Assembly: GCA_963711835.1 (NCBI GenBank)
Contig: CAVQFQ010000009.1
Location: 18,601 to 82,600, forward strand
Length of the DNA stretch: 64,000 nt
Reading direction: 5' to 3'
Source: an uncultured delta proteobacterium
GTDB taxonomy: Bacteria; Desulfobacterota; RBG-13-43-22
Shown: in pieces, positions 5,616 to 63,633 of the stretch
Numbering within the stretch: the stretch's first letter is position 1
Layout: each line of letters begins with the position of its first letter
Made by a program: the position numbers and the translations under genes
Notes under the pieces: model-generated
Databases searched by the model: none
Told to the model about the DNA's origin: nothing
The model's input: only the letters and a program-made list of their open reading frames with translations

Positions 5616-5681
5616 ATTCTCTCAACCTCTAACCTCGCCGCCGGAACAAAAAGAAGCGACGACTCTTATTTTTTTTGGTTT

Positions 5682-6001
5682 GTCCCAACGTTACGTGATT
5701 CTTAAGCGTATCCATTTGTCGAGGGCTTCGGGGGTCTTGGTTTCAAGGTTGTCCGAAAGGTAATCCGTAGCCCCAACCCGGCCCGAATTTCTAAGTGGGT
5801 TCAGAGACGGGCATTCACCAAGAGGATAATTTGCCTTGGTGTTGGCCTGTTTCTAAACCCACTTATAAACTTCCTGCCCGGGTTCAGGCTGCCGGCGTTT
5901 TGGCGGACAATCCTTGAAACCAAGACCCCTGAAGCCCTTTGGGGTGATTTAATATTTTAAGAGGCTACCCCTTCGGGTTGAGAATCACGCAACGTTGGGA
6001 C
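5682..6001. repeat. 320-bp nested palindromic (fold-back, MITE-like) element
   Basis: Terminal IR gtcccaacgttacgtgattct / agaatcacgcaacgttgggac (1 mismatch); inner arms 5722-5755 and 5904-5938 pair; further arms close on a loop near 5823-5834. Confidence 0.85.
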
Positions 6002-6006
6002 CACCC

Positions 6007-7344
6007 CTATTTTTTGCTGCCATTGGGCGGCTGGATCGTCCCCCTGACCCAATCCAAATTCACCAGGGCCACCTGATAATCCCTCTTGGCCCGGGTCATA
6101 TTGCCTTTGGCCTGGAGTAGATTAAGCTGCGCGTCATCTACCTCCAGACGGGTTTTGACGCCGAATTCAAACCCTTTTTCGGCCATCGAAAGCAGCTTTT
6201 CGGCCTGTTCCACGGTCCCGGTAAGGGCCTGGACGATTTCAGCGGCCTCGATCACCCCGTTGACGGCCTCGCGGGCCTGGAGCAGGATGGCATCCATCAA
6301 CTTGGCCTCTTCTATCATCAGCGTGGCTTTTTCACTCTTGGCCTGGGCCACTTTTCCCTGGGTCCGCAGGCCGTCAAAGAAGGGGAAGGTCAGGTATAAA
6401 CCGGCGGTCCAGGTGGGGCCGTCGGCCCGGCTGCTTGAAAAATCCAGCTCCTGCCAGCCGTATCCGGCCTGGAGGTTTATCTTGGGCAGGATCCCGGTCT
6501 TGGCGATAGTGACCAGCTCTTCGGCTATCCCGATGCGGTGTTTAAAATTGGACAGCTCCGGTCGGTTATCCCAGGCGGTTTTGAGGGCCTCCTCCAGTTG
6601 GGGATAATCCCGGATCGGTTTTTCCAGCCGGCCCTGGACATCCACTTCCTTTCCTTCCAGGCCCAATAAAAAACGGAGTCTTTCCCGGGTCAGGGTGATC
6701 TGGTTCTCCGCTCTTATAACCGCCGGCCGGGCATTGTCCCTATCCACCCTCCCGGCCAGTACGTCATAATCCGTGGCCACTCCGGCCGCATATTTTTTTT
6801 GGGCCTCTTCCAAATGGCGGATTTTTTGCTCCAGGTTCTGCCGGGCGATGCCATGCAGCTCTTTGGCCAAGAGGACATCATAGAAGGCCGCCGAAACATC
6901 CCTCAAGGCCGCCTGCTGATAGAGACGCAGTTGGTCATCAGCAGTGGCCAGGCCAATCTTGGCCGCCCGGATAGCCGCTTCCACGGTCCCGAAGGAATAG
7001 ACAAGCTGGTTGACCCCGATGCCGACAGTGCGGGTGTCCCGTTCCACCGGGAAGAGCTGGCCGTAGGCCGTCTGGCTTTCGTCCCGGGCCCGGGAAATGC
7101 CGGCCTGGATCTGAAATTGCGGCAAGGCGGCGGCCCGTTCCTCCAGGTAGCGGCCCTCCACCTGGCGGCGATATTCCTTGGCCTTTTGGATGTCCTTGTT
7201 TTTCTCCAGGGCCGTCTGCAGGGCCTGGTCCAGGGTCAAGACGGTCAGGCTCTTTTCTTCCGCCGAGGCAGCGGGTGAAAAAAGAAGGCCCAGAGAAAGA
7301 ACTAAGAACAGAGGGAGAAAATTTTTCAGGGGTAAGCGGTTCAT
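6007..7344 (-). CDS. TolC-family outer membrane efflux protein
   Basis: Signal peptide and two OEP-like repeats; ATGA overlap with the upstream RND gene stop. Confidence 0.9.
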   Translation of the reverse strand: MNRLPLKNFLPLFLVLSLGLLFSPAASAEEKSLTVLTLDQALQTALEKNKDIQKAKEYRRQVEGRYLEERAAALPQFQIQAGISRARDESQTAYGQLFPVERDTRTVGIGVNQLVYSFGTVEAAIRAAKIGLATADDQLRLYQQAALRDVSAAFYDVLLAKELHGIARQNLEQKIRHLEEAQKKYAAGVATDYDVLAGRVDRDNARPAVIRAENQITLTRERLRFLLGLEGKEVDVQGRLEKPIRDYPQLEEALKTAWDNRPELSNFKHRIGIAEELVTIAKTGILPKINLQAGYGWQELDFSSSRADGPTWTAGLYLTFPFFDGLRTQGKVAQAKSEKATLMIEEAKLMDAILLQAREAVNGVIEAAEIVQALTGTVEQAEKLLSMAEKGFEFGVKTRLEVDDAQLNLLQAKGNMTRAKRDYQVALVNLDWVRGTIQPPNGSKK

Positions 7345-48678: not shown

Positions 48679-48713
48679 AAAAGGCAGGGTCGTAATGGAT
48701 CCTGCCTTTTTTT
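48679..48713 (+). terminator. Intrinsic terminator, probably bidirectional
   Basis: aaaaggcagggtc / gatcctgcctttt hairpin plus T-run between convergent genes. Confidence 0.8.
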
Positions 48714-48728
48714 CCTGTAGCCGCTCCC

Positions 48729-50480
48729 CTATTTCGGCCTCGCCGCCCTCTCGGCCAAGGCCTCCTTTTTCAATTCCCTCTTTAAAACCTTTCCCGCCAG
48801 GCTCACGGGCAGTTCATTTCTGAAGACCACTTCCCGGATCTTTTCGTAGCCGGCGACCTGCGGATTTACGTCATTCATGATCTCTTCTGCCGTGGCCGTT
48901 TCCCCTTCTCTCAAGACCACGTAGGCCCGGGGATACTCGGTGACGGCCGGGTCAGGGATCCCGATGACCGCGGCTTCTTTTATCTTGGGATGCTGGTAGA
49001 GGATCTCCTCCAGGTTCCTGGGGAAGACATTATAACCCTTGTACTTGATCATGTCTTTAATCCGGTCCACTATGAAGAGATAGCCGTCCTCATCCAGCTT
49101 GCCGATATCGCCCGAATGAAGCCAACCGCCTTTCAGGGTCCTGGCCGTTTCCTCGGGATTGTTCCAGTAGCCTTTCATGACCTGAGGACCTTTCTGGAGG
49201 ATCTCGCCCTCTTCGCCGATGGCCATCTCTTTGGTGTCGTCCATCAGGTCGGCGATCTTGACTTCGGAATCGAAAATCGGTATGCCGACCGAACCCGGTT
49301 TGCGGACCGCCGCCTCCGGGGTCGGATTAAGACAAACAGCCATGGTGCATTCGGTCATCCCATAGCCCTCGATAAAGACCCCTCCAATCACTTCCTTCAT
49401 CCGATTCAGGTATTCAACGGGTAAGGGCCCGGCGCCGCTGGCGGCAACCTTGACTTTCTTGAATTGGGGGGCATATTTCGAAAAATCCGAATGATTAAGC
49501 AGGGCGGTATAAATAGGAGGAGCCCCGCCCATGGCGTCAATCGGGTAATTTTCGAGAACCTTCAAGTATTCACCAGGATCGAATTTCGGAAGCACCACTG
49601 TGGTGGTTCCGACGAAAATAGGATAATTCAGGTAAGCGATGGTGCCCATGGCGTGAAACCAGGGCACCACATTGACGGCCGTAAAGTGCGAGCCTTGGAG
49701 ATTGCAGTTTTCCGGTGACAGATCTTTTACGATCTGATTTCCAAAGGCTGGGGCATTCCAGTTGGCCACTTGGGCGACATTGACGATGGTATTGTAATGG
49801 GTGATCATGGCCCCCTTGGGGAGTCCGGTGGTCCCGCCGGTATAGGCCAGGACGGCGATATCCTCCTTGCCGTTGATGGTTACGAGGGGAGGGTTGGGAG
49901 GATATTTCAACAGGAGGTCTTTGAAAAAGTAAATGCCGGCAGCCGGATCGCTTTTAATGGAGGCGATATTCTTTCTTTTTAGAAGCAGGAAACCGTATTT
50001 CTTAACCGCCGGAAGGGCTTCCTCCAGACCGGAGACGATGACCCGTTTGAGGCCGGTCTGATCCTTCACCTTGAGCAGCTTGTCCATCAGGAGATTAAGC
50101 TTGAGGGTGATGACGGTTTCGGCCCCGGAGTCATTAATCTGGTATTTGAGCTCGGCTTCGCTGTTAAGGGGCGAGCACATGGTCAGGATGGCTCCGATCT
50201 TAAGGACCGCGTAGTAGGAAACGGCGAACTGGGGGCAGTTGGGCATGAACAGGGCCACCCGGTCTCCCTTTTTCACCCCCAGGTCGGCCAGGGCGGTGGC
50301 CAAGCGCAGGGATTGGTCGTGGAGTTCCCCGAAGCTCATGGGTTTTCCCATGAAGATCAAAGCCGCCCGTTCAGGAAAGCGTCTGGCGCTGGCCTCCATG
50401 AAATCCCAAATGCTGCCTTCATAGTAGGTCAACGACTTCGGATACACATCGGGCCACAGCTTGTACCAGGGTTTGTCCAT
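48729..50480 (-). CDS. Long-chain fatty acid-CoA ligase
   Basis: YTGGTTGLPKG, EGYGMTE, LHSGD, IVDRIKDMIK and LAGKVLKR motifs. Confidence 0.92.
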   Translation of the reverse strand: MDKPWYKLWPDVYPKSLTYYEGSIWDFMEASARRFPERAALIFMGKPMSFGELHDQSLRLATALADLGVKKGDRVALFMPNCPQFAVSYYAVLKIGAILTMCSPLNSEAELKYQINDSGAETVITLKLNLLMDKLLKVKDQTGLKRVIVSGLEEALPAVKKYGFLLLKRKNIASIKSDPAAGIYFFKDLLLKYPPNPPLVTINGKEDIAVLAYTGGTTGLPKGAMITHYNTIVNVAQVANWNAPAFGNQIVKDLSPENCNLQGSHFTAVNVVPWFHAMGTIAYLNYPIFVGTTTVVLPKFDPGEYLKVLENYPIDAMGGAPPIYTALLNHSDFSKYAPQFKKVKVAASGAGPLPVEYLNRMKEVIGGVFIEGYGMTECTMAVCLNPTPEAAVRKPGSVGIPIFDSEVKIADLMDDTKEMAIGEEGEILQKGPQVMKGYWNNPEETARTLKGGWLHSGDIGKLDEDGYLFIVDRIKDMIKYKGYNVFPRNLEEILYQHPKIKEAAVIGIPDPAVTEYPRAYVVLREGETATAEEIMNDVNPQVAGYEKIREVVFRNELPVSLAGKVLKRELKKEALAERAARPK

Positions 50481-50603
50481 AGCCACCTCCACTTTTGGGG
50501 TTGTTCCATACTTCGTCATCCCGGCCAAGGCCCGCGGCAGCGGGACGCGAGCCGGGATCCAGGGACCTTTTGATTTAATTTCGGTATAGGCAGTAAACTC
50601 TCA

Positions 50604-51746
50604 TTACCCGCTGTAATTAGGAACCGCTTCTCCTTTGGCCCTTAGTTCAGCTATCCTGGCCCGGTTGCGTTTCTTTTTGGCCTTGATATTGAACCGGTCA
50701 ATCTGTTCCGCCATTTCCTGCAGGTAGGCGATCGGTTCAAACTCTGTCAGCCGGCCGTCCTTGAGGGCGCTGATTTACCAGGTCCTCGCCGGCCTGCGTC
50801 CTGGCCGTTACGTGGGACCCGCCGAAGGAGATGTCGGCGAATTCGGCTGAATAATCGGTGCAGAGGCTGCATCGGCGCCACTTCGGATAACTCGTGATGA
50901 CCGGAAAAAGTTCGATAAGGTTTAGACGTTTCTCGGTCTTTCCGCCGTCTTTCATGAGAATCTGGAAGAGGACATCGAATTCCGTTGATACCCTTCGGAA
51001 GTCGATGCTTTGGCGATCGTCTCCGGGGTAACCCCGCACAGCTTCGAAACATAGTCCATGAAGTCCTGGTGTTGGACTATGGGGGAACCGCAATAGAGTC
51101 CGAAGACGTACTTCACCTTTCGGGTCAACCCCGCGAAGCTGTCTCCGATCAGTTGGAGCTTGCGGAAACCCTGGACATGGCAGCCGAGGCCCACCAGGGC
51201 TATCGAACGCAGGTCGTTTCGCTGGGCCACCTCCTCCAGGGCCATGAGTACCGGGCTGAAGACATACTTGCTGCCCGCTCCTTCGATGATCTGTTCCCGG
51301 GTGGCGGCGATGACCGGCCAGGAAAACCAGGGATAGGGGGAGGCCTGGCCCCAGCGTGAGATGATGGCGCCGTCGATTTCTCCTTTTTCCAGAAGATAGG
51401 TCAGGAGCGAGGTGACCTTCCCGCCCGAGTAACCGATTCGGGCCAGGTCGTGATCACTGCTGATCAGGTTGCGATCGGAAAGATGGATTCCAAAACCGCC
51501 GGAATCCTCATTTTCATTTCTAACTCGTCCGAAAAGCCGCCGGTCCAGCTCGTCGTGTGGCGCGCCTGATCCGGAGCAGGCCTGTACACAAAGGCCACAA
51601 CTGGTGCACTCCTCCACCAACTCCGGGCCATCCCCTTTAAAGGAGATACAGCTAACCGGACAGACGGCTACGCAAGCCCCGCAGGAGATGCAGAGACGGG
51701 TGTCAATGACCTTTCGTTTCAGATTTTCAAAGGAAATTTCTTCCAT
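50604..51746 (-). CDS. FrhB/FdhB-family (F420-dependent beta-subunit-like) Fe-S flavoprotein, two frameshifts
   Basis: CISCGACVAVCP and CTSCGLC ferredoxin motifs, SGGKVT, GSKY, VGLGC, GLYC, CSLCTD.SAEFADISFG; frames join near 51010 and 50775. Confidence 0.75.
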
Positions 51747-51815
51747 TAATTCTCCTATCTTTGGTGACAGCCAAATTTCGATGACCGGCACCTTTTATGT
51801 CTCCGGTATCGTGCT

Positions 51816-53251
51816 TCAAGATATTTCCGGCCTTCGCTGGGCCCAGGGACGGGCCTGCTCCAATTGGGCTGCCAGACGGAAGAGGGTGGCTTCATCGCCG
51901 AAACGAGCCATAAAATGGACGCCTATGGGGAGGCCGTCGGCATTCCAGTAAAGGGGCAGGGACATGGCCGGGCTGGCCGGTAAAGTTGGCGATCGGGGTG
52001 ATGGGGACAAAGTCCTCCGCCCGCTTCAGTCCCAGTAGGGGATTGTCCGGGGGAGGATCAAAGCTTCCCAAAAGGGGAGGCGGTTCAGCGACCGTAGGCG
52101 CCAGCCAGAGATCATAGCGGAGGAAGAATCGGGCGATCTCGCGGGCGATCCGTTGGAGCAGAGTCAGGTAAAACAGATAAGTGGAAGCGCTTTGGGTTTT
52201 CCCCATCTCATAAAGAGCCCAGGTGAGAGGTTCAAATTGATCTGTTGTGGCGGCCTGGCCGGTTACCATGGCCATACCGTCGATAGTCCAGGCACACCCG
52301 GAAGACCAGAGGACCATGAAGGCTTGGCTGATCAGGTCGCGGTTAAGGGGTGGGATCCGCTTCCTCCACCTTGTGGCCCAAGGCAGCGCAAAGCGAGGCG
52401 GCGTCCCGTACGGCCTGGAGGCAGTCGGCATGGATGGTTGCCCCGGAGAAATTGGAAGCGGTAAAGGCAATGCGCAGTTTCCCCGGGTCGGCGCCGACCT
52501 CCTGGAGGAAAGGGCGGGCCGGAGGAGGCGCCCAGTAGGGATCACCCACATCCGGGCCGGAGGTCGCATCCAGCAGGGCAGCGCTGTCACGCACCGACCG
52601 GGTCACGGCATGTTCGGAGATCAGTCCGCTGAACAAATCACCAAAGTCCGGCCCCAGGGGAGTTCGGGCCCGGGTCGGTTTCAGACCGAAAAGCCCGCAG
52701 CAGGAGGCGGGGATGCGAATCGAACCGCCGCCGTCATTGGCATGGGCCATGGGCACCATCCCGGCAGCCACGGCCGTGGCCGAGCCGCCGCTCGAACCTC
52801 CCGGCGACCGCCCCGGGTTCCAGGGATTTCGGGTGGGCCCGAATAGACGGGGCTCCGTGGTGGGAAGAATGCCCAACTCAGGCAGGTTGGTCTTCCCAAC
52901 CATGATCAGGCCGGGCTCGCTTCAGGCGAAGAACCAGTTCATTGTCATGGTCCGGTACGAAATTCTTAAGTAAAGCCGTGCCCAGGCACATCCTGACGCC
53001 TTTAACCATGGCCCCGATATCCTTAATGAGAAATGGGACGCCGGAGAAAGGGCCCTGGGGCAGGTCCGTTTTGGCCAGGGCCAGGGCCTGGTCAAACATA
53101 GGCGAGAAATGACTGCGTTGAGGGAGGGATTCAGGCGCTCGATTCGCTCTATGGCCGCCTCCACCAGTTCAAGAGGGATAACTTCCTTCCTTCGGACCAA
53201 TTCCGCCAGTCCTATGGCGTCGAACGAGGCATATTCTTTAAATTTAGCCAT
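51816..53251 (-). CDS. Amidase-signature family amidase, about four frameshifts
   Basis: [32 protein letters not shown] and GLPIGVHF pieces in consecutive frames. Confidence 0.85.
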
Positions 53252-53338
53252 TGGTAATTCTCCTTCGGGTAAGTCCCCGACTTTGCCGGGAGGGATTTAA
53301 AAAGCATTTGTTTTCCAACCCGAAAAATTCGGAAAAGA

Positions 53339-53516
53339 TTTTTGCCACAGACAACTGCAGGATCCCGCTTCCAGCGGGACGGCGACCTGCCGCTACCCTA
53401 ACCGTCCGCCCTTCGGGCACTAAAAAGACTTGGGCCAACAAGCAATATCCATCTAACGAGCTTTTCTGTTCGCGCCAGTCCCGCCTGGCGGGATCCGCCT
53501 TTGTCTGTGGCAAAAA
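53339..53516. repeat. 178-bp element with perfect 16-bp terminal inverted repeats and internal REP-like hairpins
   Basis: TTTTTGCCACAGACAA (53339-53354) / TTGTCTGTGGCAAAAA (53501-53516); gatcccgc..gcgggac and gtcccgc..gcgggatc inside. Confidence 0.7.
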
Positions 53517-53619
53517 AATTTGAACAGCCATTCATTTGTCGCAAATCCTTAGCTGATGAGGAGTTGCGGGTATGCAAGAAACTTTCTTTGCCAAATAAAA
53601 CAAAAAAATTCCAAAGGCA

Positions 53620-54390
53620 CTAAAGACCAGTTTGATCCAAAAATTCAATGATGGCTCGGTTGAGTTCAGCCGGTTTTTCCACCGGCAGCAGGTGGCCGGC
53701 AGCCAGGATGTGGACTCGTTGGGCCCCTTTGATTTTGTCGGCCAGGAACTCTCCGAACTTAGGCGGCGTGAGCAGGTCATCCTCACCGGTAACCACCAGG
53801 ACCCTGGCTCTGATTTCAGGTAGCCGTTCCCGAACATCAAACCGGTCGCAGGCCTGATAATCGCCGTAAACCACGGATGGTAGGCATTTCAGGTTGTCAT
53901 CCAGTATGGGTTGGATAATGGCCGGGTCGGTTTTTGGGGATATGGCGAACTGTTTAAATGATTCAACGAAGGCCGGGTAATTTTTTTCTATGGGCTCAAA
54001 GATTACCGGCGCAACCTTCATTTTGGCACCGGTACAGATAAGCACCCCGGCTAAAAAGTTTTTGGGATAATCCAGAAGCAATTGCAGGGTGATGGCCCCG
54101 CCCAGGCTCAAGCCGGCTGGAATGGGTCGTGGAGGATTCAATCGACTAATAAAATCCATGACCGCATGGGTATATTCCGGTATGGTTTGGTACCCCCCAC
54201 CAAGGCTCCGCCCATGCCCGGGAAGATCCAGGGCAATTGCATTGATCCGACCGCCAAGGCCCTTTAATTGGTTATCCCATATAATGCTCGAGAATCCAGA
54301 GGCATGGATAAAGACCAGTGTTGGTTTTCGGGAATCCAGCGGCCAGGTGTTGGCCTTAAAAGCTAAGCCCGCTTCAAAAAGCTCTTTCAT
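53620..54390 (-). CDS. Alpha/beta hydrolase
   Basis: LDLPGHGRS, GLSLGG nucleophile elbow, GEDD and AGHL motifs. Confidence 0.9.
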   Translation of the reverse strand: MKELFEAGLAFKANTWPLDSRKPTLVFIHASGFSSIIWDNQLKGLGGRINAIALDLPGHGRSLGGGYQTIPEYTHAVMDFISRLNPPRPIPAGLSLGGAITLQLLLDYPKNFLAGVLICTGAKMKVAPVIFEPIEKNYPAFVESFKQFAISPKTDPAIIQPILDDNLKCLPSVVYGDYQACDRFDVRERLPEIRARVLVVTGEDDLLTPPKFGEFLADKIKGAQRVHILAAGHLLPVEKPAELNRAIIEFLDQTGL

Positions 54391-54458
54391 GTCCTACCTT
54401 CCGGGGATAATTAACCTAAACGTTAAAAAAATTTTCGATTAGCCGATGCGTGAGCAAA

Positions 54459-54549
54459 ATCCCCCCTCGATCCCCCCTTTGGCAAAGGGGGGAAGGGAGA
54501 CTGTCCGACAAATCCCTCTCCCTTGATGGGAGAGGGTTGGGTGAGGGTG
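54459..54549. repeat. Two REP-like hairpins
   Basis: cccccctttggcaaagggggg and ccctctcccttgatgggagaggg...gggtgaggg. Confidence 0.65.
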
Positions 54550-54592
54550 TAACTATTTAGATGGATTGCCCAAATTTAATGCAACTGTTGGA

Positions 54593-56366
54593 TTAATCCT
54601 CGATTAGAATAAATTTTCTCTCAAAATTCTTAGCGCTGGGGAGAACTTTCATCCAGAAGGCCTTGTTTTCGGGATCCCCGGGATTAAAGAGGTGATCGTA
54701 TTTGATCCGGTCATCACCTGCCGGCATGCGCTCGACACCCCGGACGGCAAACTCGTGCAACTGGCGGGCATTCAACAGATGCGGGCTGAGGGCAATATAA
54801 AAGAGCCCCAATTTTTCCACTTCCCGCACAACCCGGCCCACCTCCAACCCGGCCTGCCTGAATTGGGCCAGGGCAACCAGAAGGCGGTCTCCAAGGCTCA
54901 TGGCGGCAATGGTATGTTCATTTTCAGATGGAATGCGGGACAACAGGTCCGATCCCTTGGGACGGGACGCGATGCGCTCTTTCATCTCGAACAAATTCGC
55001 TCCGGAGCTTCCCGCCAATACAAACACGAACTTGCCGGCTTTTTTAACGGCTGTATCCAAATAGGGCAGGAGAAGCTCATAGGGCCAGGGTTCCTTTGGT
55101 TTGGCATCCGCCTCATCGATCAAGGAAAGGCAGGGCTGTTCCGAGTTGAGTATTTCGGAAAGGCACGATCGAAATTCGGGTTCATCCATTTTTGCCATAT
55201 TGATTTCCTGGTATTGAACCGATGGAGCGATTGAGGCGGCTATCTGTTGAACGAAATACGTCTTCCCGGTCCCGGGCGGGGCCCAGATCAGGTGGTTTTC
55301 CCGTTTTGGGGTCGAGTGGCCGAAGCCGGATATGATTTTCTGCTTAATATCCTTTAAGGTATTTCGGACTTCCTCCTCATATCTGTTATATTCGCCGATG
55401 ATACGGTATTGCGACAAGGCAACCTTATCCAGGCTATCAATGAAGACTTGGGCTTTTAAAGCTGCCGGATCTTCCATCACCGGAGTCGTTTCAGTTTTGG
55501 TTGGTGTTTCAGCCTTTTTTGAGGGAAGAATTTCAACCGGATCTCCAAGGAATTCAGCGGTGGCTCGAAGTATGGCGTTGGCATCTCCAAAAAACGGGAT
55601 ATGGATATTCCCCTCCAGGGGAACAAAACGGGCCTTTGGGATCATGGCCGCCAATTCCCTGCCGCAATGGAATGGCATAGCTTTATCTTCGCGGCGGTGA
55701 ATCACCAGGGTAGGAACTTTTATTTTAGGCAGGAGGTCAATGACATCAAATGAATAAACCGCCCCCAATAACTTTGAGGCCAAGTCGGCGGTTGTCGATA
55801 ATCTTTGTAACCGGGTGAACCACTCAATAATCGAGGGTTCCCCCCCAGGCAAAAAAATATCAGCCAAGGTTTTAGAACCGATTCCCCAAGCCGCTTTGAT
55901 CATTGATATAAAGGAGGCTTTAAATTCATCGGGGGCCAATGCGCTTCCACAGGAGTAGGTAGCATAAAGAATAAGATGCGTAATCCGTTTGGGATGCTTG
56001 ATGGAATAGGCTATGGCAACAGGTCCGGCTTGAGAAAAGCCGAACAGGGCGAAACGTTTTAACTTGAGATGATCGACCACCGCTTCCAGAGACCTTACTT
56101 CCGACTCAAGGGAAAAGTCGGTCCGGCTTCGTTCAGAGAGGCCGCAGCCCTGTTTGTCATAGGTCACAAAGGTATGGTTCTGTGTCCCTTTCTCCAAATA
56201 ATCTCTGGCTGCCGGATGATCCCAGGCTAGTTGTAAATGGCTGACCCACCCTGGAGGGATAACGAGAAAGGATCCTTGGCCCACTGTCCCATAGGCGATG
56301 CGGGACCTTGTCGGAGGTAACACAAAACCCTATCTTAAACTCTATTTCTTGTTTTACCGGCTCCAT
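54593..56366 (-). CDS. Alpha/beta hydrolase-fold domain fused to an AAA+ ATPase; one frameshift near 56303
   Basis: VTSDKV/RIAYGTVGQG, YDKQGCGLS and GFSQAG, then WAPPGTGKT Walker A and LIDEAD Walker B. Confidence 0.78.
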
Positions 56367-56649
56367 AAATGACCCTCCAGTCACGAAGACTTTACCAAGA
56401 TTGAAACCCCCCCATCCCTTAAAGCGGAATGCATTTAAATTGGCGGGTACCTCCCCGCCAACTTAAAATTTTATTTTCTGAGTTCTCTGTGCCTCCGTGG
56501 TGAAAAATCTTTGTTAAACAAGAAGTTAAAATAGTAACAAACTTACCCAAAGAAGTCAAAATCGGGAACTACTCGGTGCGAGACCCTCGAATAAATTCGT
56601 CTCAGTAGATCCATCCTAAAGCGTATGATGGCCGTAGGCCTGAGGTCCT

Positions 56650-56679
56650 AAGGAGAATCACGCAAGGCGGATTCTCCTT
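56650..56679 (-). terminator. Hairpin after the second amidase
   Basis: aaggagaatc / gattctcctt inverted repeat next to the stop codon. Confidence 0.6.
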
Positions 56680-56681
56680 TC

Positions 56682-58167
56682 TCAATCTTTTGTCATGCTG
56701 CAATGTATTGGCGGTGTTCTCCGGGACCAGGGTCTGGCCTGCTCCAACTGGCCTGCCAGCCGGAAGAGAGTGGCTTCGTCGCCGAAGCGGCCGGCAAATT
56801 GAACACCGATAGGCACATTCTCTTTATTCCAGAAAAGGGGCATCGACATGGCCGGCTGGCCAGTCATGTTCTGAACCCGGGTGAAGGCAACGAAGGCATT
56901 GGTTACCTCAAGCCATTTTCTGGGAGACTCCGGGTCCCATTGAAAGGCCCCAATCTGGGTAGGCGGTATCCTCATGGTCGGGGAAAGGAGCAGATCATAA
57001 TCGTCGTCGTGATACCATTGGGCCATCTTTCGCGAGAAACGCTGGATTCCTTCCAAGGCAACCAGGTAATCGGCCCCGGTGCGTTTTAAACCGGCCCGGT
57101 AAACCGCCCAGGTGATTGGCTCCAGCTCTTCCTGGGTGATCTTCCTGGCCAGTTCTTTTTCCCAATAGGCCACAAAATACCCTGCCAGGCAGGAGAAAAC
57201 GCTGCCGAAGGTTACGGCGATATTCGAATAAGCGAACAGGTCTGCACGGACTTCTTCAACTCTATGCCCCAGGTTTTCGCAAAGCCGGGCGGCATCCGTT
57301 ACCGCCTCCAGGCAGTCCGAGTGGAGATGGGCTTCAAGATCCCATCCTTCCGGGACAGAGGCCAGAAACCCGATCTTCAGGCTTCCCGGATCGCGCCCGA
57401 CCTCCTCAAGGAAAGGGCGCTCCTTCGCCGGAGAGGCAAAGGCATCCCCCAGGTCCGGTCCGGAGGTCAAATCCAGAAGGGCGGCCGAGTCTCTCACTGT
57501 CCGGGTTAGCCCATGTTCATGCGTGAGTCCACTCCCCAGGTCACCGAAGAGAGGTCCCAAGGGATTCCGTCCTCTGGTGGGCTTTAGACCGAAGAGCCCG
57601 CAGCAGGAAGCCGGGATCCGGATGGATCCCCCGCCATCGTTTCCATGGGCCATGGGTACGATCCCGGTCGCCACGGCCGCGGCCGACCCGCCGCTGGAAC
57701 CCCCCGGGGTTAAGGCCGGATTCCAGGGGTTTCGTGTGGGCCCATAAAGGATCGGCTCGGTGGTGGGCAGGAGCCCGAACTCCGGGGTGTTCGTCTTGCC
57801 GAGGATGATCAATCCCCCGGCCCGCTGGCGTCTAACCAGTTCGCTGTCGAGTTTGGAGACATAGCCTTTGGCCGCACGAGATCCCTCGTCAAAAGGCGTC
57901 CCTTCATATTCGGCCAGAAGGTTCTTCAACAGGAAGGGGACACCGGCGAAGACAGCTCGGTTCGTTTTTTGTTTTTAATCTTTTCCGACCACTGCTTTGC
58001 CTCTGCGCGGGCCTGGTCGTAGAGTTTGTGGATCACGGCATTGAGCCTGGGATTCACCCGCTCGATCCGCTCGATGGTGATCTCCAGAAGCTCCGTGGAG
58101 TAATCTCGCCCTTCCGGATCAGGTTTCCCAACTCGATAGCATCATAGCCAATCAGTTCATCAGTCAT
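56682..58167 (-). CDS. Amidase-signature family amidase, frameshifts in the 5' part
   Basis: [14 protein letters not shown]..., [22 protein letters not shown] and [10 protein letters not shown]. Confidence 0.85.
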
Positions 58168-58292
58168 AACGGTATTTTTCCTCCAAACCCGGAAAATCAA
58201 AAAGAACAATTTTTTGCCAAAGACAAAACAGGAAAGAGTGGCGGCGACCTGCCTCTCAGTTGAGTTAACCGAAGGCCGACCCTTCTTTGTTT

Positions 58293-58813
58293 CTACCTGA
58301 AGTAAGTGGTTATCCAGATCATCAGCAAGAACCCTATGAATTGGGACAAATGCCCCACCAGGCAATCCGGTAGTTGAAATACTTTTTCCTGGTGATCACC
58401 CCGATTTCATATATTTGATAGGTTAGGTCCCGGAAGATGTCTTCTTCGGAGGCCTTGGAAAAATCCTTATAATATTCCTTGGCCTCTTTTCGTTTGGCGA
58501 TGTGACCGAAAAAAATTAACTGAGGAACCGATTCCTTCGTTTTTACCCCGGACCGGGCCAGCAGGGCCTGCAAAGCAAAAATCATGAAAAAGATCAACGC
58601 CAGCAGGTAGTATAAAAGGATAGCATAGGATATCCAATCCCTGTGCAGGGTCCCCAGCTTTGTAAAAACTATCGTGGCCATGACCCCGCTGAATGCCAGG
58701 AGCATATAAACTTTCTGGTCGGCCATTTTGATCATGTTTTGAAGATTGAGATAGATCCGCCAGGCCGGATCATTCTTTGCCATAAGATATTCTACCAGGT
58801 CGTATTCATCCAT
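58293..58813 (-). CDS. Pycsar effector-like membrane protein (DUF5706/PycTM-like); frameshift near 58345 hides the last TM helix
   Basis: IKMADQKVYMLL, two TM helices, LIFFGHIA and QIYEIG.I..KKY; an adjacent frame continues QFIGFLLMIWITTYFR* to 58293. Confidence 0.8.
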
Positions 58814-58834
58814 TCTTGTTCCTTTCAGGATATT

Positions 58835-61800
58835 TCAGCCAGTTTCCTTTCCGTCTTTCTCCACCCAGCCGTCGGCGCCGCATTCTTTGAAGATTTCTAT
58901 GGCTTTGCCGAGATTCTCCTGGGCTTTTAATCTATCGCCTTTTCGTTTGAACAACTCTGCATAAAGGGCATAATCTTTTCCCAGGTGGAACATCATTCGG
59001 TTCCTTTGATCGGCTTCGATGGCCTTCTGAATCCAATGTTCTGCCTCAGATATGTGTTGATCATCAATATTGAGCAGAATCTCTCCTATATATCTTTGAA
59101 TCCAGCCTTCGACTACTTTTACCTTATTATTTCGTGAATGGGCATACAAAGATTCTAAATTCACATCTTTCTCTTTATTCATCACCTTTGATCTTGCTAA
59201 ACCTACTTTTCCAACATTCGCCCAGGAAGGCCATAATCGATTATTCTCTAAAACCCAACTCGCTTTTTCGTAATGTTCTTTGGATCTTTCGAAATCTCCC
59301 ATTTCAAAATAGGTCTCTCCCAAGGTTAAATCGTGCAACCGCATTCCAGGAATGGAAATTGATCTTTTCACAAAATTCGAGTCCCTTCAAAAGATATTTT
59401 TCTGCCTCTTCCAGTAATCTTTTTCCATAACAGGAAACTCCATGGCTTATATACGCAATCGCTTTGGAATAAATATCCCCGCTTTCTTCGGCAATGCGGA
59501 GAGCCTCCTGGTAGTTTGGAATTGCAAATTTATTTTTCCATTGTAGTAATAAGAAAAATAGGCCAGATTGCTCTTTATTACTGCAATCCCCCAAAGATTT
59601 TTTACTGCCACATTAATATCAAGAGCTCTTTGGAAATAGTTTGTTGATCTTTCAAATTCACAGTTCCAACCTAAAGCACATCCAAACCAGAAGCTTGCCA
59701 AAACTGAAGTGACAATGTCTTTTACTTCTTCCGATATCTTTAAAGCCTCTTCCAAAGCCTTAAATGCCTCTGGATAATTTTCTTCCACAAAAAAATGGTA
59801 TGTGCCAAAGATGGTGTATATCTGGCAAAGCCTCTTCTTATAATTGTGTTTTATGGCCAAATCAATAATCGGGTCGATGGCTTCTTTTGCCTCAACATGA
59901 TAGTTCATTTGAGCCATATAGAGCCCAAGGGCCGTCCTGGCATCAATAATTTGTTTTTCTACATCATCTGTCTGGGGTAATCGTTCAAGAGATGTTACTC
60001 TTTTCTTTGCATGGGCAATCGCATCATTTAACGAAGCTGTCTTTTCAGCCTTCCTGCTTGCCAACCTTGAATACTCAGCACTCTTTAAATAATTCTCACT
60101 TAAAAAATAGTGCTCGGCTAAAACTTCGTAATGTCTCACTTAAATTATCTTTATATAATTCCTCGATAGCGTTCCCGATCTCTTCATGAAGTTTCTTCTT
60201 TCTCTTGGCCAATATCGAGTCATAAACTACTTCACGGGTCAGGGCATGTTTAAAGATATAATTCGATTGAGGGTATATGCCTCTCTCATAGAGAAGTTCT
60301 GAATCCTTTAAGATGGAAAGATAGGAGAGCAATTCTTTTTCTGGGAGACCTGTTACCTGATTTATCAATGGATAGCTGAACTCCCTCTCGATGACAGACC
60401 CGGTCTGAAGCACTTCTTTTGCCCCTTCAGGCAGCGAGTCAACTCTTGCCATGATCACATCCTGGATTGTTGACGGAATGGTCATCTGCTGGATATCTTT
60501 TGAAAGACCGTATACGTTTCCTCTTTTTTCTATGATTTTTAGGTCTTTAAGGGATTTTATAAACTCCTCAAGAAAAATGGGACACCTTCTGTCTTCTCAA
60601 GAATCAATTCCTCCAGGGTCTTTTCAATTTCCTTTGTGCCCAAAAGGTAGGAGTCACCATCTCAAGGCTTTCTCGGTTGGAAAGCCGATGCAAAGTTAAC
60701 TGATTGTGATAGGACTTGCCGCCCCAGGTGGAATAAATTCAGGCCGATAGGTGAATATCAACAAAACCCTTGACCCTGGTATGCTCTCCAAATAGTTTTT
60801 TACTACATCCTCTGAACTCTTATCCATCCAGTGCAGGTCCTCAAAGGCGATGATCAGGGGCCGTATCTCAGAACCCTTAAGAACAATCCGCTTGAATGCC
60901 TCACTAATCCTATCTTTCTTTGCCTCAGGACTCAGGGAGATCTGATCAATACCACTATCTTTGACCGATAGAAGCTCAAGAAGATAGGGGAGGGTGGAGC
61001 TTCATCGATCCACCGATCAGTTCCAGGCCCTCTTTTGACCTTTTCTCTGATTTCCTGATCTCCTTCTCCCTTCCTGGATATCGAAGTTTGACTTCAGGAT
61101 GTCTATGAATGGATGATAGGGGATACCCCTGCCGTAAGAGAGGCACTTCCCTTCCAGAAAGGTAACATCCTCGTTGGCAACAGCCTTTCTGAATTCATAC
61201 AAGAGCCTGGATTTGCCCACCCCGGCTTCGGATATGATGGAAAAGGCCTGACCCTTTCCTGCCTTGGCTCGCTCAAAGCCATCCAGCAAAAGCTCAAGCT
61301 CCCGCTCCCTTCCAACAAAAGGAGTTAGACCCCGCTCGGCACTGACATCAAATCTGGTCCTCCTGGTGCTGGGGGCAATCACCTGATAGACCTTGACCGG
61401 CGTCTTCCTTGCCTTTAACCTGCTTTTCCCCCAGGCCTTCAAACCGGAAGAAACCCTTCGGTCAGTTTGAAGGTATCTTCGGTCACATAGGTGGTCCCAG
61501 GTTCTGCCAGGCCTTCCATCCGGGAGGCCAGATTTACCGTATCCCCGATGACCTTGAACTCCACGCGCAGGTCATTGCCGATAGTACCCACGACCACCGG
61601 ACCGGTGTGGATCCCGATCCGCATCCGGATGGCCGGTCCTCTGGCCTCTTCCTGGATCCGGTGGCTGAATTTGGTCACCTCCTGGTGGATGGCCAGGGCC
61701 GCGCTGATGGCCCGCTGGGCGGCGTTTTCCAAGGCAATCGGAGCGCCGAAAAGGGCCATGATGCCGTCCCCCCGGAATTCCTGGACCGTCCCTTCGTACT

Positions 61801-62195
61801 TGTGGACCTGCTGGGTCAGGATTCCGAAGATCTCATCGATCAGGGCAAAGGCCTTTTCATCCCCGAGCTTTTCGGTCAGGGCCGTGGAGCCCTCCAGGTC
61901 GCAGAACATGACCGTGACCTGCCGGCGTTCCCCTTCGATCCGGCCTTTCTGGGCCAGGATCTTCTCGGTCAGTTCCTTCGGGCAGCGGGGATGGGGCCGG
62001 CCGTTTTTCTGGAAGGGATTTTTGAGGAGGTGTTTCCGAAGGTGCAGCCAAGGCCTGACCGCATTGATTGCAGAATTTGCTTTCCGGCGGATTGACTTCA
62101 CTGCACCGGGGGCAGGCCAGTTCAATTTTGGCCGCGCATTCGTTACAAAACTTGGCGCCCTCCGGATTCTCATGACCGCAGGCAGGGCATCTCAT
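58835..62195 (-). CDS. Double zinc ribbon / class III nucleotide cyclase / STAND-type ATPase / TPR protein, many frameshifts
   Basis: Four CxxC pairs; TVMFCDLEGST, QEFRGDGIMALFG and IGDTVNLASRME; VGRERE, EAGVGKS and FEDLHW (about 60830); FKHALTREVVY; TPR-like helical repeats, in collinear ORF pieces. Confidence 0.85.
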
Positions 62196-62272: not shown

Positions 62273-63434
62273 TCAGGCAATAATAACTCCATCCCAGAGC
62301 ATCGAAAGAAAATCGCGCCAGGGCACGATATGGATATCATCGTGAATCCGTCGGTTACGTTCATTGCAGACGAGGTAGGCGCTCCTTGGATGGTATTCCT
62401 GGATGAAGGCCTTTAGGGGACGGAGGTCTGCGCTATCGACACGACTGGTGCCCTTTACTTCAACGGCGATCTTCCCCACGGCCCAAAATAAAATCAACTT
62501 CCAGACCCGTTTTGGTTCTCCAGAAATTGACCTCATAATCCAGCTCGCTGTAGGAACGGTGGGCCATGATCTCCATGAGGATAAAATGTTCGAAGGCCCT
62601 TCCGAACTGCTCTCCCTTTTGTTCGGGAATAAGACGCCCGGTGAGACCGCCGGCAATCCCGACATCGAACAGGTAAAACTTTCCAGCCTTGGTGATTACC
62701 TGACGTTCCTGTCGTTTTTTGTATGGCTCGATCATGGTGCCGAGCAGGGTGTCAACCAGGATTTGATAATATTCTTTGACGGTTTTAGCATCCACGCCGC
62801 ATTCCCGGGCGATGTTGGCATAGTTGGTCAGTTCCCCATGGGAATATCCCATGGCCTCAAAAAAGCGTGAAAAGGCGGGAATGTTCCGGGTCAGACCTTC
62901 ATCAAACACTTCCTCCTTGAGATAATCCCGGACATAAGCCCGAAGCGATTTACGGTATTCTTCTTCCAAATAGTGCGCGGGTATCATGCCTCTATTTAAC
63001 ACCTTGAGGAGATCCAGGTTTTCCACTTCTCTGGAGACCAGCGGGTGCATTTCATAACGCCAGGCCCGACCTCCAAGCAAATTGGCTTTGCCTCGTTTCA
63101 GTTTCCTGGCGCTGGAACCGCATAAAAGGAAACGAAGACCCTTGTTCTCGATCAGCCAGTGGACTTCGTCAAGCAATTGCGGGACCTTTTGGACTTCATC
63201 AATGATTATCGGTTCCTTTAATTGCCGTGGGGTGGATGCCAGGAGCTGTTCCCGCAACAGATAGGGACGCTTGGTGAAATCCAGGAAAAGATCGGTTTGC
63301 AACATATCGTACATCAGGCTGTTCGGGAAAGCCTCCTTAAGGTAGGTTGTTTTTCCTGTTTTTCTTGGTCCCCAAAGAAAAGCCGACTTTCCCTTCGGCA
63401 GGTTAATCCGGATTATTCGTTTGATGTTAACCAT
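62273..63434 (-). CDS. AAA_14 + DUF4143 ATPase, frameshift near 62480
   Basis: GPRKTGKT, IIIDEVQ, CGSS, KFYLFDVG, FWRTKTGLEVDF and AVEVK motifs. Confidence 0.88.
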
Positions 63435-63633
63435 TAAGGATATAACTCCTTTTTAGTAAAACTAAAATGGAATATATTCTTCGGAAATTACCTGTCAACA
63501 AAAAGCATTCCTTGTCATATTTCTCCATCTACCCATCCGCGCCGCATTCCCCGCAGAACTTCACCCCTTCAGGATTTTCCGTTTGGCAAATTGGACACTG
63601 CATGGTTCCCTCCTATAAAATAGGAAGCCGAAC

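Follow-up and report, generated by a model that had tools for sequence, protein, structure and literature searches.

Organization of the locus

We analyzed a 64,000-nucleotide stretch of DNA from an uncultured delta proteobacterium (GenBank assembly GCA_963711835.1, contig CAVQFQ010000009.1, positions 18,601–82,600), hereafter the window, in which a gene for a PycTM-family membrane protein directly follows a long gene encoding a zinc ribbon, a class III nucleotide cyclase domain, a STAND ATPase, and TPR repeats (Table 1). The genes are adjacent and co-oriented, which is the layout of Pycsar systems. We tentatively regard the pair as a sensor-gated cyclic GMP (cGMP) module with a PycTM membrane effector, probably serving in defense against phages or mobile elements; the basis for this in the sequence is the architecture, the intact catalytic and Walker motifs, the PycTM membership, the tight co-orientation, and the recurrence of the pairing in two PycTM lineages. 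The source genome (G000), which carries the window on its contig C9, was 89% complete with 6.4% contamination; the names attached to homologues suggest a host of the Desulfobacterota type.

An initial annotation had assigned the small gene to the PycTM family. Its product scored 41.9 bits with PF18967 (cut-off 27.2) and 85.5 bits with the best PADLOC PycTM model, the motifs ADQK, LIFFGHI, and QIY..KK were found in it as described, and the gene has a likely ribosome-binding site of its own, AAGGA, within the 11 nt before the ATG. The reference was the intact 173-aa copy at the locus of a relative (L004), to which the window PycTM was 92% identical. A single missing base accounts for the frameshift that had been proposed; of the three transmembrane helices expected after its correction, hydropathy of the L004 protein showed two, as segments above 1.6. 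The AlphaFold model of PycTM consisted of three long helices (predicted local distance difference test, pLDDT, 89.9). The window and L004 proteins belong to PycTM lineage A, with two hydropathy segments, and those of genomes G013, G007, G454, and G452, together with a B-like protein of G414, to lineage B, with three. The ratio of nonsynonymous to synonymous substitution rates (dN/dS) of PycTM against L004 was 0.13, and the cyclase domain had a ratio of 0.14; values of 0.13–0.17 for both genes indicate purifying selection. No PDB entry matched PycTM by sequence or by fold, no relative of lineage A or B was found in the viral collection, and a scan of a genome collection with a single PycTM sequence gave no relative.

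The make-up proposed for the large gene was confirmed by hidden Markov models, with pieces matching PF12773, PF00211, PF13191, and TPR families. A single open reading frame, on the other hand, was not obtained: a frameshift-aware alignment with the intact homologues P0105 and P0052 revealed 11 single-base frameshifts and no in-frame stop. A probable 12th frameshift near the 3′ end puts the stop at 58825–27, so that the spacer to the PycTM ATG is 11 bp long (12 bp in L004); the 21 bp reported initially hold for the raw reading frames. A STAND ATPase with Walker A and B motifs and C-terminal TPR repeats corresponds to the architecture of Avs proteins. A single-sequence fold of homologue P0105 was discarded (pLDDT 38).

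Table 1. Features of the PycTM locus and its flanks (positions in the window)
Feature	Position	Strand	Remark
PycTM (PF18967/DUF5706) membrane protein gene	58293..58813	-	173 aa in intact relative; one base missing near 58349
11-nt spacer with AAGGA, likely ribosome-binding site, after homologue-guided stop	58814..58824	-	sequence reading
DZR/class III cyclase/STAND ATPase (AAA_16)/TPR gene	58825..62195	-	about 1120 aa read against intact homologues
N-terminal double zinc ribbon	62020..62195	-	DZR PF12773, 50.1 bits
Class III cyclase domain	61451..61978	-	Guanylate_cyc PF00211, 91.6 bits
Walker A (EAGVGKS), STAND ATPase	61209..61229	-	motif reading; AAA_16 PF13191
Walker B (LIIAFEDLHW), STAND ATPase	60828..60857	-	motif reading
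TPR repeat region, predicted sensor	58830..60130	-	TPR family matches
Amidase, conserved downstream flank (also L004, C11)	56682..58160	-	frameshifted
AAA_14 + DUF4143 ATPase, PADLOC PDC-S01-like, upstream cassette	62273..63434	-	frameshifted near 3′ end
Scar of deleted cyclase-STAND-TPR gene	63505..63603	-	zinc-ribbon start fused to the C-terminal motif of the family
Second DUF4143 ATPase, 3′ part, cut by contig end	63634..64000	-	95% identical to C11 copy

Cyclase domain and its predicted product

Both metal-binding aspartates (in FCD and GDG) and the transition-state asparagine and arginine, as in active class III cyclases, were present in the window cyclase, whose domain (61451–61978) reads as a single open frame. 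The base-selecting positions are occupied by Glu (61780–78) and Lys (61555–53). A glutamate four residues before the second aspartate, with lysine at the second position, is the E118/K195 pattern of PfPucC, compared here by position and not by alignment. In the available part of the Pucsar preprint, guanine reading by the cGMP-making PfPucC is modelled via E118 and K195, with D122 as the second aspartate, and E118/K195 are aligned with K497/D566 of an engineered adenylyl cyclase (10.64898/2026.08.12.744502). The nearest PDB matches of the window cyclase were purine cyclases; in the best of them, Cya2, the glutamate was aligned with E488. Cya2 is a guanylate cyclase and its E488K variant an adenylate cyclase, as stated in the accessible text of PMC5995499. 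Thus, with Glu/Lys as in PfPucC and a glutamate aligned with that of a guanylate cyclase, the predicted product is cGMP and not a pyrimidine cyclic nucleoside monophosphate (cNMP); the Glu/Lys pair and the purine-cyclase neighbors in the PDB do not correspond to a pyrimidine-selective pocket.

The same positions were read in the 120 listed best cyclase homologues: 84 had Glu/Lys, 34 had Glu/Gln, and Asp/Gln and Gln/Lys occurred once each. Three of the four readable PycTM-adjacent cyclase domains carried Glu/Lys. In a quick tree, near relatives have switched to Lys/Thr, Gln/Thr, or Glu/Thr along short branches. Close paralogues within one genome (L135, L136, and L137 of G259; L039 and L046 of G015) likewise differ, with Glu/Lys, Lys/Thr, Gln/Thr, Glu/Thr, and Glu/Gln among them. 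Such changes on short branches suggest repeated switching between cGMP and cyclic AMP.

The trees of the cyclase domain and of PycTM were both quick trees with long branches. In the former, a 26-sequence group with the window cyclase stood apart from 12 PycC-like cyclases, none of them a characterized PycC (Shimodaira–Hasegawa-like approximate likelihood ratio test, 99). The window cyclase is therefore not of the PycC/PucC type, as it is placed with STAND-fused and ordinary cyclases; its position outside the Pucsar subclade is indirect, the tree holding no PucC sequence. The reported absence of a PycC-type gene holds for the window and also for the source genome at its 89% completeness, in which we found two class III cyclases, both of the STAND type, and one PycTM; neither another type of class III cyclase nor a match to CYTH cyclases was found there. 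The cyclase domain itself is widespread, with at least 7436 homologues at E ≤ 1e-30.

Distribution of the gene pair

We analyzed a family sample of 21 genomes, a second family of 17 genomes (which holds G454 and G452), and a phylum sample of 401 genomes. Of the initial expectation that the pairing is not confined to this locus, one part stood: it recurs in L004 and in lineage B, whereas most homologous cyclases have unrelated neighbors. PycTM was encoded in 3 of the 21 family genomes, each time directly after a STAND-TPR gene, and cyclase homologues were found in 18 of the 21. A STAND context was present in both cases of lineage A and in four of the five genomes of lineage B, which belong to three families.

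At L004, the order STAND-TPR gene, PycTM, amidase is preserved. The STAND partner there is a different paralogue, the cyclase domain of which lies beyond the contig; it shares 66% (ATPase) and 44% (TPR) identity with the window protein and 78–84% with the paralogue on contig C11 of the source genome. Lineage B is about 20% identical to lineage A (E 1.8) and forms a separate clade in the quick tree. It comprises 82 database proteins, 55–80% conserved over most of them; lineage A has 4 protein clusters. In G013 and G007, a class II phosphodiesterase-like gene comes next after the lineage B gene; G013 in addition has a stand-alone cNMP-binding gene between two Glu/Lys cyclases. An unlinked homologue (35%) of this phosphodiesterase-like gene was located in the source genome (C8:25821–26570). 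In the second family, PycTM was encoded in 2 of 17 genomes (G454 and G452), both times lineage B beside a STAND cyclase. G454 has an intact STAND gene of 1122 aa, then PycTM, then a LipJ-like hydrolase-cyclase. The window also encodes an alpha/beta hydrolase fused to an AAA domain (54593–56323, minus strand), whose hydrolase part resembles the corresponding part of LipJ-like hydrolase-cyclases.

A rough binomial calculation under island models gave a chance figure of 0.002–0.05 for two of four to six non-PycC lineages lying beside such a gene, with guessed rates and with related copies included although they are not independent. Wider PycTM searches, covering the classes to which G454 and G259 belong and a second phylum sample, revealed no new loci.

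PycTM matches were found in 15 of the 401 genomes of the phylum sample. Among the 14 matches outside G000 and G007, four lay by PycC-like cyclases, eight had no cyclase within 1.5 kb, one was at a contig end, and one was below the cut-off. In L127 and L128 (G428 and G429), a PycC-like cyclase, a gene of about 198 aa, and PycTM stand in a row; this may be the E2-linked Pycsar-like-4 type, going by the available portion of the preprint 10.64898/2026.08.12.744502. Distant relatives of lineage A (25–39% identity) were found at 35 genome loci. Sixteen of them were inspected: an aldo-keto reductase gene precedes most of the Burkholderiales copies, PycC-like cyclases adjoin three copies, and a weak cyclase match adjoins one. 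The Burkholderiales loci L068–L092 have a conserved PycTM-family gene that stands by itself, immediately behind genes for an aldo-keto reductase and a PAS-GGDEF-EAL protein and away from any STAND cyclase; it is a candidate for a housekeeping use of PycTM. Two tandem, broken relatives of lineage A lie upstream of a weak cyclase-domain gene and beside a transposase-like gene in L093 (6408–10021).

We also compared 32 regions selected by the cyclase (13 from the family, 17 from the phylum, and 2 from the source genome), several of which were cut by contig ends. In L042 (11397–13821), L043 (10549–13106), and L143 (1426–3829), longer cyclase-STAND genes precede a conserved gene of about 330 aa and a small open reading frame. 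These clusters, one gene of which we take to be radical-SAM-like, may be peptide-modification clusters.

Variation of the locus and frameshifts

The locus is a variable array of cassettes in front of the amidase gene. Window positions 48689–58244 are duplicated in the source genome at C11:36377–46507 (L007), over about 10 kb with 91–99.8% identity. On C11 the genes run cyclase–DUF4143–amidase, PycTM is missing, and a PIN/AbrB-like pair precedes the cyclase gene; given the 6.4% contamination, this copy may belong to a second strain. An element of about 330 bp at window positions of about 5650–6010 recurs with 73–91% identity on 12 or more further contigs of the source genome. Toxin-antitoxin genes were found near the locus in relatives. 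The two DUF4143 ATPase genes noted initially do lie upstream, one of them cut by the contig end. As a marker of a defense island DUF4143 is weak, because the source genome contains 12 matches and its presence therefore says little.

The scar between the DUF4143 genes records the loss of a whole gene, short similar motifs at either end of which mark the deletion points. Exactly at the 3′ end of the cyclase gene, identity to L004 rises abruptly from 55–67% to 89–96%, and it stays high across PycTM. The large gene is itself a mosaic: its first approximately 200 codons share 89–93% DNA identity with the Glu/Gln paralogue on C11, and the remainder is mostly 69–96% identical in protein to a Glu/Lys-type homologue. 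A chimeric assembly of the genes on C9 and C11 looks unlikely, because the common 5′ part is only 89–93%, not about 100%, identical. Recombination appears to swap sensors in front of the PycTM effector.

Single-base indels like those of the large gene occur in the neighboring amidase genes and in the C11 copy of the region, a pattern that fits errors in a duplicated region, and we infer that most of the breaks are consensus errors. The genes rpoB, rpoC, and valS are intact in the source genome, so sequence errors are not uniform in it. Twenty-four sequencing runs were listed for the sequence, none of them an RNA run. Because all 24 had a share of ≤0.12, they offered no same-strain data for polishing. 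In contigs from four runs, compensating indels were found at about five of the frameshift sites; these contigs come from relatives and cannot separate error from lesion, and no listed contig piece of the four runs spans the TPR region to PycTM.

Proposed mechanism and alternative explanations

The same arrangement in a second effector lineage that is scarcely related to the first makes it likely that the pair is a sensor-gated membrane-damage switch. Ligand binding to the TPR repeats would cause ADP/ATP exchange and oligomerization of the ATPase, in line with general STAND behavior, and oligomerization would bring the cyclase domains together as active head-to-tail dimers. These dimers would make cGMP, a preference for GTP being expected from published enzymes with Glu and Lys. 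By analogy with Pycsar and Pucsar, the cyclic nucleotide would activate an oligomeric PycTM channel with three transmembrane helices (3TM), which would damage the membrane and arrest growth. A functional coupling of the two genes, defensive or physiological, seems somewhat probable to us. About as tentative as the cGMP defense module itself is its extension to an NLR-like receptor, in which a STAND/TPR pattern sensor would have replaced PycC/PucC and would signal by cGMP to a separate Pycsar-type pore. Different PycTM lineages would then have entered such a pairing on two or more occasions, and exchangeable TPR sensors and switching base-selecting residues would plug into one membrane effector.

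Several findings weigh against a sensor-gated defense module. PycTM was present in only 2 of the 32 cyclase-selected regions, where the neighbors were mostly metabolic genes, other cyclases, and radical-SAM clusters, and a STAND neighbor was found at 0 of the 35 loci of distant lineage A relatives. Neither lineage A nor lineage B joins the PycC-linked PycTMs in the quick PycTM tree. Within lineage B, the partner cyclase of G454 is degenerate (Gln/Thr, with histidine in place of the catalytic asparagine), the PycTM of G452 is internally deleted and lies upstream of a Glu/Lys cyclase, and the B-like PycTM of G414 stands alone. The Glu/Lys pair was rejected as a mark of PycTM partners because it is the commonest state among close homologues, and the G454 partner lacks it. 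The initial assignment of the sensor to the Avs type found no counterpart, as no Avs model of the PADLOC library (version 2.0 of 2023, which precedes newer Avs families) matched P0054, P0015, or the L004 protein. The best NCBIfam match was a TOMM kinase/cyclase fusion, below the cut-off. Finally, three core genes are intact, while the window's copy of the locus is frameshifted.

The latter contrast is what would be expected if the frameshifts were real—the 11 or 12 of the large gene and the single one of PycTM—and the window locus were a dead relic without function, whatever its relatives do. We regard this as very improbable: no in-frame stop interrupts the large gene, similar indels affect the adjoining amidases and the C11 copy, dN/dS is low, and intact relatives exist in L004 and G454. 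A possible but rather doubtful explanation is that the two genes are passive neighbors, PycTM being an independent accessory gene inserted into an array rich in STAND cyclases, where recombination between conserved gene ends swaps the cyclases and keeps PycTM behind one of them without any signaling link. Cyclase homologues reach 11 copies per genome, often in tandem, the C11 copy has a cyclase without PycTM, and stand-alone PycTMs are common, as in 8 of the 14 phylum matches and in the Burkholderiales relatives. The identity jump at the cyclase 3′ end and the deletion scar, which formed between motifs repeated at either gene end, are also as expected, and recombination at a conserved 3′ end would preserve adjacency without selection. 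The variable array as a whole, although it fits an accessory conflict module, likewise offers a neutral way to keep the genes adjacent. This explanation accounts less well for adjacency in two unrelated PycTM lineages, for the STAND neighbor that lineage B keeps in two families and with two different gene orders, for the phosphodiesterase-like gene that travels with lineage B in two genomes, and for purifying selection on PycTM in a genome in which no class III cyclase outside the STAND type was found.

The genes could also be coupled but physiological, with TPR repeats sensing a metabolite or peptide and PycTM, as one of several cNMP receivers, tuning transport or the envelope without killing. 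Consistent with this are the neighboring genes (cNMP-binding proteins, a phosphodiesterase-like gene as an off-switch, LipJ-like hydrolase-cyclases, and other cyclases), the TOMM match, the short branches of the cyclase domains compared with PycC, and the conservation of lineage B. We consider it unlikely, as PycTM is patchy (3 of 21 and 2 of 17 genomes) and is present in one copy of a duplicated locus but absent from the other, the TPR sensors are rapidly diverging mosaics, and the characterized PycTM/PucTM proteins are abortive-infection effectors. If true, it would make PycTM a purine-cNMP receiver outside Pycsar.

If the defensive cGMP module is correct, STAND pattern receptors and cyclic-mononucleotide signaling would be joined in one two-gene module with the sensor visible in the sequence, and the trigger of a cNMP defense cyclase would become directly testable. 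The very large and mostly unexplained cyclase-STAND-TPR family would gain its first output, and the STAND-linked immune cyclases, which the Pucsar preprint only predicts, their first experimental case.

Comparison with known systems

Soluble adenylyl cyclase is a member of the SWACOS clade. The architecture of the window gene is that of SWACOS-type cyclase-STAND-TPR proteins (clade name from the accessible text of PMC8195603). The literature searched, which included passages of PMC13069673, PMC11224242, PMC8195603, and PMC13581612, linked no PycTM effector to this family and did not describe the present gene pair, although the supplementary tables of the Pucsar preprint and of PMC13581612 may list such an architecture.

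Like the locus studied here, Pycsar consists of two co-oriented genes with the class III catalytic aspartates and an effector matching the PycTM models; PycC, however, produces cUMP or cCMP and lacks a STAND-TPR part, in contrast to the purine-type pocket of the window cyclase (PMC11224242, as far as its available text goes). Avs proteins likewise combine an N-terminal effector domain, a STAND ATPase, and a TPR sensor in a single chain. They bear the killing domain themselves, whereas the N-terminal domain of the window protein is a predicted messenger synthase; defense and non-defense STAND clades are interspersed (PMC13581612, available part).

In PucsarTM (EcPucC with EcPucTM), a class III cyclase likewise lies beside a gene of the PycTM family, there with 3TM, and EcPucTM forms a hexameric channel that abortive defense requires; the window cyclase further has the Glu/Lys pair of PfPucC and cGMP as its predicted product. 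The accessible portion of the preprint places PucC as the sister group of the stand-alone Pycsar-1 cyclases, whereas the window cyclase forms one protein with a zinc ribbon, a STAND ATPase, and TPR repeats and lies outside the PycC-like group; Glu/Lys in the window cyclase would therefore be convergent with PucC. STAND-fused cyclases (NACHT, AP-ATPase) form a separate predicted immune clade there, 3TM effectors are described for the Pycsar clade, and that portion of the text names no 3TM partner for the STAND-linked cyclases (10.64898/2026.08.12.744502). Although it falls outside Pycsar and Pucsar by its cyclase clade and outside Avs by the models, the module would work like PucsarTM with an Avs-like sensor.

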